A stretch of DNA of 64,000 nucleotides from Escherichia coli (GTDB lineage: Bacteria; Pseudomonadota; Gammaproteobacteria; Enterobacterales; Enterobacteriaceae), in the NCBI RefSeq assembly GCF_024502345.1, contig NZ_JALDNN010000002.1. One strand, written 5' to 3'. A program made the position numbers. This document shows positions 60,775 through 63,700 of the stretch, in pieces. The number at the start of each line of letters is the position of its first letter. Within the stretch, counting starts at the first letter, position 1.

Positions 60775-63700
60775 TAAAAACCGGAAATAACGCCAGAAAT
60801 GGTGGAAAAAATAGCCTAAATAGGCTGATTCGATGTGTTTGCGGGAAAAAAATCGGCCCAGATCCGCGAAATTTTAATCAGCGAGTCAGCTTGGGAAGAA
60901 ATGACCTGCTTATTCGCACCTTCCCTAATTTTTCAATTCAGTATTCGACATACTCAGACCATCTTTAGACATCATTGATTATATTTCCTTCAATGAAGGG
61001 CTTCCTCGCTATATTACCAACAAGATTGGTTGAAACTCCATCAAAAGCCTCACCAATAACTCAGCCTACACGAGGGATCGTTTTACCTGAGTTAATTGCA
61101 CCTTTATCACCAAATTTAGCGAGTAGTCTGCAACTTATATATAATAACTCCGTTAAATGAATATCCAGACTGTGAATTGCTTACTTTACCTCATAACTGA
61201 GCGTATAAGCAGACGGTTCCTTCAGGTCAACCTGCTTTGATAAGTGCGAACTGCAGTGTTCAGTTCATTAACATAGCGCTCAAATTCACCGACGGCATAC
61301 ATCAGAAACCGATCATCCATAAGTATGTCATTAAACATGTTAATTGACACACCGGCGTTCTCAGCCATCGCACGAGGAATAGCACGCAGGAGAGGTTTTT
61401 CATATTCAGTTTTTTTTGTTTTTTTACAGGAAAGAGTCTTATAATCTTCTGCAACACCATCGCTATGAGCCATGATGTTTCGGATAACAGCCAGGTGATC
61501 GACATCCTTGATGCTTTTACCGCCGAAGTTGCGCTTGAGACGCTTGTGGCAATCTTCAATGGTCTTGCGCGTTTTGTCTGTGGTCTTGCTTGAAAGGTCG
61601 TCCATTAGTGCGAGGCAATCAACCATACGGTGTTCGAACAGACCAAAAATGGTAAGAAATACGGAGCGGCGGGTCAGCTGCACGATCAGATGTTTGTATT
61701 CAGACCTAACTTCATCTTCATCATAGCCAAAGCACGAACCGCATGAATAGTAAGTACTTGGAAGCGTTGTAATTCGACCATCTTCATGATGTTGTTCATC
61801 CGGAAATTCCCCAGACTCAACGGCTTCTGGCTTATCAGCATCAATTAGGGCACTGTTGCAAATAGTCGGTGGTGATAAACTTATCATCCCCTTTTGCTGA
61901 TGGAGCTGCACATGAACCCATTCAAAGGCCGGCATTTTCAGCGTGACATCATTCTGTGGGCCGTACGCTGGTACTGTAAATACGGCATCAGTTACCGTGA
62001 GCTGCAGGAGATGCTGGCTGAACGCGGAGTGAATGTCGATCACTCCACGATTTACCGCTGGGTTCAGCGTTATGCGCCTGAAATGGAAAAACGGCTGCGC
62101 TGGTACTGGCGTAACCCTTCCGATCTTTGCCCGTGGCACATGGATGAAACCTACGTGAAGGTCAATGGCCGCTGGGCGTATCTGTACCGGGCCGTCGACA
62201 GCCGGGGCCGCACTGTCGATTTTTATCTCTCCTCCCGTCGTAACAGCAAAGCTGCATACCGGTTTCTGGGTAAAATCCTCAACAACGTGAAGAAGTGGCA
62301 GATCCCGCGATTCATCAACACGGATAAAGCGCCCGCCTATGGTCGCGCGCTTGCTCTGCTCAAACGCGAAGGCCGGTGCCCGTCTGACGTTGAACACCGA
62401 CAGATTAAGTACCGGAACAACGTGATTGAATGCGATCATGGCAAACTGAAACGGATAATCGGCGCCACGCTGGGATTTAAATCCATGAAGACGGCTTACG
62501 CCACCATCAAAGGTATTGAGGTGATGCGTGCACTACGCAAAGGCCAGGCCTCAGCATTTTATTATGGTGATCCCCTGGGCGAAATGCGCCTGGTAAGCAG
62601 AGTTTTTGAAATGTAAGGCCTTTGAATAAGACAAAAGGCTGCCTCATCGCTAACTTTGCAACAGTGCCGCTTTTTTTAATATGTCCCGTTCGTCGGTAAC
62701 CCGCTTCAGCTCTTTCTGGAGACGGCGGATCTCGGCCTGAGCATCTGACTGTTCTTTATTAATGGAAGGATCCGGATCGTACTTCTTTATCCAGGCGTAA
62801 AGGCTGTGGGTGGTGATATCGAGACGTGTTGCAACGCTGGCAACAGAATAACCGCGATCAACAACCTGTTTGACTGCTTCAGTTTTAAACTCTTCGGGAT
62901 GACGCTTACCGCTCATGGGCACCTCTCTTTAAGCCATCTTAAATGACTCGGAGGTGTCTGTTAAACCCGTGGCGATTCAAGAGAAAGAACATTCTGAATT
63001 CATCCGCCAGTTCATCCGGGAACGGCTCTGGCAGGTAGTGCCCGCAGTCATACATGACCGACCTGATAACGTCTGGCCTTCTTCGCTCAGTAACGTTTTG
63101 TGTCCAGGACGTCAGTCTTCACAGCTGTCAAATCAACGCTATTTCATAAGGCGGCTCACGTTTTTATGTCATGAGCCGCGCTTTTCCGGCTGGAACGTTC
63201 CACCCACTCGGTCACTGTGATTTAATATGCTAAACCGGTTTAATTAAGTTTAGCTTTGGAGGGTTTTAGCATGAATGCAAAAGTTTGGGTTCTGGGCGAC
63301 GCGGTGGTGGACCTGCTGCCGGAGAGCGAAGGGCGCCTGCTGCAGTGCCCTGGAGGCGCGCCGGCTAACGTGGCGGTAGGGGTTGCCCGCCTTGGCGGCA
63401 ACAGCGGATTTATCGGCCGCGTCGGCGGTGACCCGTTTGGCCGCTACATGCGTCATACCCTGCAACAGGAGCAGGTCGACGTCAGCCATATGTATCTCGA
63501 CGATCAGCACCGCACGTCCACTGTGGTCGTCGACCTTGACGACCAGGGGGAACGCACCTTTACCTTTATGGTACGCCCCAGCGCTGACCTGTTCCTGGCT
63601 GAAGAAGACCTGCCACAGTTTGCCGCCGGACAGTGGTTGCACATCTGCTCCATCGCGCTCAGCGCCGAGCCCAGCCGCAGTGCTACCTTCGCGGCTATGG

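Follow-up and report, generated by a model that had tools for sequence, protein, structure and literature searches.

A truncated plasmid gene at an IS26 junction in Escherichia coli and the small, putatively HEPN-type family to which it belongs

Close to one end of a 64,000-nucleotide stretch of Escherichia coli DNA (contig NZ_JALDNN010000002.1 of assembly GCF_024502345.1; hereafter, the window) lies a minus-strand gene fragment that has a complete copy of the insertion sequence (IS) IS26 on one side and part of ISKpn26 on the other (Table 1). The fragment corresponds to codons 35–242 of a gene that encodes a 242-amino-acid (aa) protein. Overall, we consider it fairly probable that this is a pseudogene remnant of a gene carried mainly on Klebsiella-type IncFIB(K)/IncHI plasmids, the intact product of which is HEPN-like and likely to be a growth-arresting ribonuclease (RNase).

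The fragment translates without interruption as 208 codons and a stop (LIDADKPEAV...YQSRLT*). A first-pass annotation of the window had recognized about 209 codons of a minus-strand gene that end at an IS26 boundary, and its coordinates proved exact, as the next base opens the IS26 terminal repeat. Alignment of the junction with intact copies shows that the window departs from them exactly at 61848/61849. Relative to the intact homologue WP_012540055.1, codons 1–34, the start codon and the native upstream region were lost at the IS26 junction, and the missing 5′ DNA has no second location within the window. Consequently, a strongly conserved N-terminal helix of 38 residues has lost 34 of them. 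The same annotation had described a gene lost to IS26 activity; the truncation is borne out, but the extent of the loss is smaller than this implies, because only 34 of the 242 codons and the promoter have gone and the fragment retains the predicted catalytic motif. The 208 codons that are left show no decay, suggesting a recent truncation.

All features by which IS26 is recognized are present at the boundary: a length of 820 bp, the Tnp26 open reading frame (ORF) and 14-bp terminal inverted repeats at 61849–61862 and 62655–62668 (GGCACTGTTGCAAA begins at 61849 and the matching TTTGCAACAGTGCC ends at 62668). This copy is not flanked by an 8-bp target-site duplication (flanks TCAATTAG versus GCTTTTTT), so the junction arose by deletion, cointegrate resolution or recombination between IS26 copies rather than by simple insertion. 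This IS26-mediated rearrangement replaced everything upstream of codon 35. At least four E. coli plasmids share the identical junction. A complete IS26 abutting a truncated gene with no duplication is the pattern of the deletion and rearrangement scars that IS26 leaves on multiresistance plasmids, and nothing here is unusual; the window feature is a commonplace IS26 scar and by itself of little interest, and its parent family is of modest interest. The window contains four IS26 copies in the same orientation (23997–24816, 27014–27833, 31231–32050 and the copy at the junction), none with an 8-bp target duplication, which suggests that IS26 has reshuffled the replicon extensively.

Together with its 3′ flank, the fragment forms a 924-bp orphan segment (60925–61848). 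In a megablast search of 72,556 plasmids, it is up to 99.9% identical to plasmids from Klebsiella, Salmonella, Citrobacter, Enterobacter and E. coli. The segment is bounded on the left, 296 bp beyond the stop, by the ISKpn26 terminal repeat CTTATTCGCACCTTCC (60909–60924), inserted at a native CTAA.

Table 1 Features of the truncated gene, its boundaries and related loci. Positions are those of the window unless a replicon is named; residue numbers are those of the intact 242-aa protein.
Feature	Position	Strand	Basis
5′-truncated gene, codons 35–242 and stop of a predicted solitary HEPN-family protein of 242 aa	61222–61848	−	Translation, BLAST, family alignments
RNIMAH, R157-N158-x3-H162, predicted HEPN R-x4-H catalytic motif	61465–61482	−	Family conservation; RTasHEPN and AbiD alignments span the region
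Second conserved block on long helix 78–120 (R94-R95-S96, 61663–61671; F105-E106, 61630–61638)	61630–61671	−	36-homologue alignment; helix from AlphaFold2 model
Native 3′ flank from parental plasmid, 297 bp	60925–61221		Plasmid BLAST match begins at 60925; compared with locus L002
IS26-derived codons prolonging the frame of the truncated gene	61849–61935	−	Frame open into IS26, antisense to tnp26
Complete IS26, 820 bp, with tnp26; boundary of the 5′ truncation	61849–62668	+	Annotated IS26 in identical plasmid pCE1537-E
Right-hand part of ISKpn26 (IS5 family), left boundary of the orphan segment	60325–60924	+	Annotated ISKpn26 in pCE1537-E
tRNA genes near homologues	pHCM2 NC_003385.1 (L012), 4178–4252; K. 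pneumoniae NZ_CP044046.1 (L013), 3981–4055 and 4203–4289		

The full-length homologue, for which the first-pass annotation had called, is represented by WP_012540055.1 (242 aa) in the K. pneumoniae plasmid NZ_CP083052.1, and we read its neighbours together with those of its relatives. Most homologues are about 245 aa in length. Their N-termini align well (MAKFFFSL.LW.A.SSI.VMKMLAEQAE.NI.RA), with S16, M20, M22, L23, Q26, E28, N30 and A34 conserved in at least 90% of a 29-sequence alignment, which indicates that the longer, 242-aa ORF is the real gene. The intact locus has, some 40 bp ahead of the start codon, a promoter-like sequence (TTGAGA-17-TAAAAT) that the window lacks. Word-seeded searching of 5.8 billion proteins gave 60 family clusters, phmmer run exhaustively over 1.84 billion representatives gave only 36 at 50% identity, and a profile search of the same 5.8 billion proteins gave 130 clusters of about 220–275 aa; every one of the 130 is named ‘hypothetical protein’, and a Pfam domain is found in none. 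The phmmer and profile searches returned family members only, with no bridge to any named family. Hosts belong to the Enterobacterales, Aeromonas, Shewanella and Pseudomonas, and identity falls to 24% with length and motifs kept. The family constitutes its own PHROG (21382, function listed as unknown), yet tblastn against 50,697 phage genomes found no match; among plasmids, 283 records match in tblastn, 246 of them at a coverage of at least 80%. Literature searches on the protein accessions, and on pHCM2 or SSU5 with HEPN, returned nothing relevant. The parent family thus appears to be a small, sequence-divergent and undescribed gammaproteobacterial HEPN family without a curated model.

The 5′ end of the gene has been independently disrupted at least three times. 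Besides the window copy, an IS903-like end (GGCTTTGTTGAATAAAT) cuts the gene at codon 9 in pL73-2 (NZ_CP033379.1, at about position 7000 of locus L001), and the match in K. pasteurii NZ_CP089404.1 (L014) is limited to residues 26–242, with a coding-sequence (CDS) call of 128 aa. Two other E. coli plasmids match the family protein only from residue 10. The repeated disruption could be fortuitous in DNA rich in IS elements, or could mean that a costly gene is selected against.

Conservation in the family singles out two blocks. Only R94, F105, E106, R157 and F215 are invariant across 36 diverse homologues, and R95, S96, N158 and H162 are conserved in at least 90%. The RNIMAH hexapeptide that had drawn attention to the fragment is present as noted, at fragment residues 123–128, and supplies R157-N158-x3-H162. 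HEPN nucleases are characterized by an R-x4-6-H motif, typically in the form R-[N/H/D/Q]-x3-H, and the family carries it in that form; the exceptions are one homologue with N in place of H162 (P0071) and one with R-H-x3-H (P0092). The motif taken by itself was rejected as evidence for HEPN, because 79% of composition-preserving shuffles of the fragment contain at least one R-x4-6-H (R-N-x3-H arises in 1.6%). The fragment itself has three such matches (RSEYKH, RNIMAH and RKTIEDCH), the first and third of which are not conserved in the family, and RNIMAH carries weight only because it is. The second block (R94/R95/S96 and F105/E106) may contribute to the active site or bind RNA.

From the family alignment, AlphaFold2 produced a confident model (predicted local distance difference test, 89.5; predicted template modelling score, 0.85) that is mostly helical, in keeping with the helical composition first guessed from the fragment. 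The modelled elements are a helix at residues 2–38, a beta-hairpin at 45–75, a 43-residue helix at 78–120, helices at 131–141 and 151–162, and a final helix at 215–241. The motif closes the helix at 151–162, and an insert of about 50 residues separates it from the last helix. The position of the motif in the predicted bundle, and the part that the N-terminal helix would have in it, are inferred from the secondary structure and the profile alignments. In HEPN domains the motif lies between helix 3 and the last core helix, and the alignments to RTasHEPN and AbiD given below would agree with such a placement.

We judge it likely, but not proven, that the family belongs to the HEPN superfamily. 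It is no more than likely because no curated threshold was reached. Direct scans of the closest full-length protein were empty, and the case rests on the convergence of conservation, fold and profiles. The best sequence-profile matches of the family are to RTasHEPN of DRT/UG systems, AbiD/Abi_2 and AbiU2, and all of these alignments span the region from the motif to the C-terminal helix. The PADLOC model RTasHEPN (PDLC03820, an uncurated model) matched 16 of the 36 members, with a best E value of 4.8e-5; the best alignment places residues 140–226 of P0077 on profile positions 61–146 of 148. PADLOC AbiD matched three members (best E value, 0.0018; residues 146–236 of P0058 on positions 187–258 of 277), and further PADLOC matches in the family were to Cas13c (E value, 4.9e-5), Cas13b and CARF-HEPN. 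PHROG 2158, ‘abortive infection resistance protein’, was matched by seven members (best E value, 2.9e-4). Sub-threshold Pfam matches included HEPN_Swt1 (three members), HEPN_RiboL-PSP, Abi_2, HEPN_AbiU2 and HEPN_MAE_28990, and the aligned regions, among the matches listed, all cover the motif. The modelled fold can be counted as an all-alpha, up-and-down bundle of the kind that superposes on solved HEPN domains, although Foldseek searches against PDB and BFVD returned no significant match.

That negative is one of several observations that weigh against HEPN membership. The full-length protein from which the fragment derives matched nothing in Pfam, PADLOC or NCBIfam beyond a single chance NCBIfam match (E value, 0.1). 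No family member reached a Pfam gathering score, the best being 14.5 bits for AbiU2 against a cut-off of 26.8 (E value, 0.025) and 14.1 bits for Abi_2 against 25.6 (E value, 0.058). Profile and single-sequence searches of PDB sequences retrieved no HEPN chain, only chance matches (CLASP2, an NLR and designed proteins), and the asparagine at position 162 of P0071 breaks the motif. The HEPN-like reading of the first-pass annotation has moderate support, through the invariant R157, the conserved N158 and H162 and the RTasHEPN, AbiD, Cas13, CARF-HEPN and PHROG matches of the family; a significant HEPN or Abi match, which that annotation had proposed as the test, was obtained only marginally.

These negatives leave room for a family that is not an HEPN nuclease at all, but a helical bundle with another role (for example, regulatory or structural, in plasmids or phages), in which the conserved R, N and H residues would serve binding. 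The unmet curated thresholds, the empty Foldseek searches and the frequency of R-x4-6-H by chance speak for this explanation. Many independent HEPN profiles, however, align over the motif region, the polar position of R-N-x3-H that is typical of HEPN nucleases is conserved, and the gene resides on mobile elements with no conserved neighbour; we consider the explanation unlikely.

Intact copies occupy varied mobile contexts. On Klebsiella-type plasmids, the gene has a terY/PP2C-phosphatase/kinase cluster on one side and a bacteriocin-immunity/GIY-YIG region on the other. Further copies occur in an integrase islet (Aeromonas), as cargo of an integrative and conjugative element (Dickeya), in an integrase/IS island (Serratia), in an island with antirestriction, RadC and CbtA/CbeA genes (Yersinia), in an island with PIN-TPR-GreABC, DUF87/HerA-like and AAA_15/21 genes (Pseudomonas) and in a prophage, between a serine integrase and lysis/tail-tip genes (Buttiauxella). 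pHCM2-type plasmids of S. Typhi and K. pneumoniae carry a homologue as well, with 62% (L012) and 54% (L013) identity. An all-against-all BLASTP comparison of ORFs within 2.5 kb found no neighbour shared across eight loci other than plasmid-identical flanks, which excludes a conserved antitoxin or partner gene at these loci, and the gap upstream of the gene is as short as 60–75 bp in several loci. The absence of a conserved neighbour, the short gaps and the lack of an RNA antitoxin together are the signature of a solitary gene of mobile elements. In the Klebsiella plasmid locus L002, an unannotated ORF of about 90 aa (7258–7533, minus strand) lies upstream of the intact gene in the same direction, and a second promoter-like site is found at 7589–7562. 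The ORF is unlikely to be a partner gene, as it has no counterpart beside homologues in other genera.

The intact gene might instead be the toxin of a toxin–antitoxin pair with an unrecognized small-protein or RNA antitoxin, and hence an addiction module rather than a triggered defence. HEPN toxins often occur in such pairs (HepT/MNT, RnlA/RnlB and AbiF with an RNA antitoxin), the gene is plasmid-borne, and the repeated breakage of its 5′ end could reflect toxicity. Arguing against a pair are the eight loci without a conserved neighbouring ORF and the shortness of the upstream gap. HepT/MNT toxins (PDB 8xdj, 7ae2 and 5yep) are about 130–140 aa in length and are always accompanied by an AMPylating MNT nucleotidyltransferase antitoxin; the family protein is 242 aa, and no MNT-type nucleotidyltransferase gene lies beside family copies in the loci examined. 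Type III RNA antitoxins were sought with Tandem Repeats Finder, which detected no repeat array in L002, L012 or L005, and no structured RNA in Rfam matched the window around the fragment; both results count further against a pair, which we regard as improbable.

A solitary, mobile-element distribution of this kind recalls HepS, the stand-alone HEPN protein of 218 aa from prophage Gifsy-1, which forms an inactive tetramer, is switched on by the tail-tip protein of a siphovirus and cuts tRNAs in the anticodon loop (PMC13043305). By analogy with it, we propose that the family protein could be a trigger-activated HEPN RNase that acts in abortive infection or exclusion. The two have in common a stand-alone gene, the absence of a conserved partner and a location on prophages and mobile elements (HepS: Gifsy-1 STM14_3211; PDB 9oik; a solo abortive-infection anticodon nuclease). 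They share no sequence homology, and the architecture of the family, with its motif at 157–162, beta-hairpin and large insert, is its own. No matching gene of 218 aa is annotated in the LT2 Gifsy-1 record. Other HEPN defences that consist of a single protein are DARNA (PD-T7-3) and ApeA. With respect to RTasHEPN of DRT/UG systems, the family differs in that no reverse transcriptase gene adjoins its gene in the loci examined.

In the mechanism that we envisage, the intact protein would be a solitary helical bundle of the HEPN superfamily in which R157-N158-x3-H162, together with R94, R95, S96 and E106 on the long helix, forms the predicted RNase site. The site is probably composite across a homodimer, as in other HEPN enzymes, and, by analogy with HepS, DARNA and ApeA, the protein would probably be held inactive until a cue from infection. 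Once triggered, it would probably cleave tRNA or mRNA and arrest growth, leading to abortive infection or exclusion. The suggestion that the fragment is the remnant of a defence or toxin gene thus finds its support in genomic context and analogy.

On the pHCM2-type plasmids, the homologue follows, some 750 bp downstream and on the same strand, an element-borne tRNA-Asn(GTT) gene, which is accompanied in L013 by a tRNA-Ser(TGA) gene (Table 1); no tRNA gene is found near the family gene in eight other loci. To connect these tRNAs with the family protein, were it an anticodon nuclease, would be pure speculation. A wider interpretation, which we put forward tentatively and hold to be possible rather than likely, is that the family is an unrecognized single-gene HEPN anti-phage system, possibly an anticodon nuclease, that is widespread on Klebsiella IncFIB(K)/IncHI plasmids and on pHCM2-type replicons (possibly phage-plasmids). 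The nearby tRNA-Asn and tRNA-Ser might then replace, or resist cleavage of, the targeted tRNAs, and the repeated 5′ truncation by IS elements in E. coli plasmids may point to a cost that the gene imposes on its carriers. About 280 plasmid records carry the family; most of them are clinical Klebsiella or Salmonella Typhi pHCM2-type replicons. Should it prove to be a solo HEPN defence such as HepS or DARNA, it would add one more stand-alone RNase immunity gene and help to account for the phage resistance that large Klebsiella plasmids bring with them.

The window copy itself is very probably non-functional. Both the promoter and the probable first core helix have been lost, which makes it probably inert. 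The reading frame of the fragment does continue into IS26, where an ATG at 61887 would add 13 aa (MISLSPPTICNSA) and one at 61935, 29 aa. For the identical plasmid pCE1537-E, the NCBI Prokaryotic Genome Annotation Pipeline (PGAP/RefSeq) calls a 237-aa ‘hypothetical protein’ (WP_181875811.1; window positions 61222–61935, minus strand) from the second of these. With its first 29 codons inside IS26 and antisense to tnp26, this call is a chimeric ORF across the IS junction and most likely an annotation artefact.

Were the hybrid frame expressed, by read-through or from an outward-facing IS26 promoter, residues 35–242 would be fused to a leader of 13 or 29 aa and activity might be kept. The open frame with its two ATGs does weigh against an inert remnant, inasmuch as it allows a truncated protein to be made; every conserved motif residue would be retained, the hybrid is called as a CDS, its 208 codons show no decay, and the identical junction persists in several E. 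coli plasmids. IS26 ends can also supply a −35 box to hybrid promoters. Yet no convincing outward-facing promoter was found on the minus strand of IS26, in which a single weak match (9 of 12 positions) compares with 2.6 expected by chance, and the Shine–Dalgarno-like AAAGGGG runs straight into the first ATG (61887), so that a ribosome-binding site would have no spacer; these two observations are why we rate the copy as non-functional. As the open frame is merely the antisense strand of tnp26, and as nearly all of a highly conserved and confidently modelled N-terminal helix is missing, we think an active fusion very improbable.

The ISKpn26 remnant in the window comprises the C-terminal 150 transposase codons and the right end of the element, and it is adjoined by an IS3-family element (orfA, 59050–59445; orfB, 59403–60284; whole region, 59050–60924). 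In pCE1537-E, ISKpn26 is complete and is preceded by a PP2C phosphatase gene. Further to the left are a plasmid-borne gene for an OmpC-type porin of 370 aa (57740–58852, minus strand) and, upstream of it at about 52000–56500, genes for a type I restriction endonuclease R subunit and a SprT-family metalloprotease; these annotations were transferred from the 454-kb E. coli plasmid NZ_CP034659.1, which is 100% identical over this stretch. On the right-hand side of IS26, a 90-aa fragment of an IS3-family orfA (62650–62922, minus strand) is cut by the IS26 end. Beyond it, a sucrose-utilization cluster begins with a fructokinase/aminoimidazole riboside kinase gene (63270–64000, plus strand) and continues in pCE1537-E with genes for an scr porin, a phosphotransferase system (PTS) IIBC component, a hydrolase and a LacI-type repressor.

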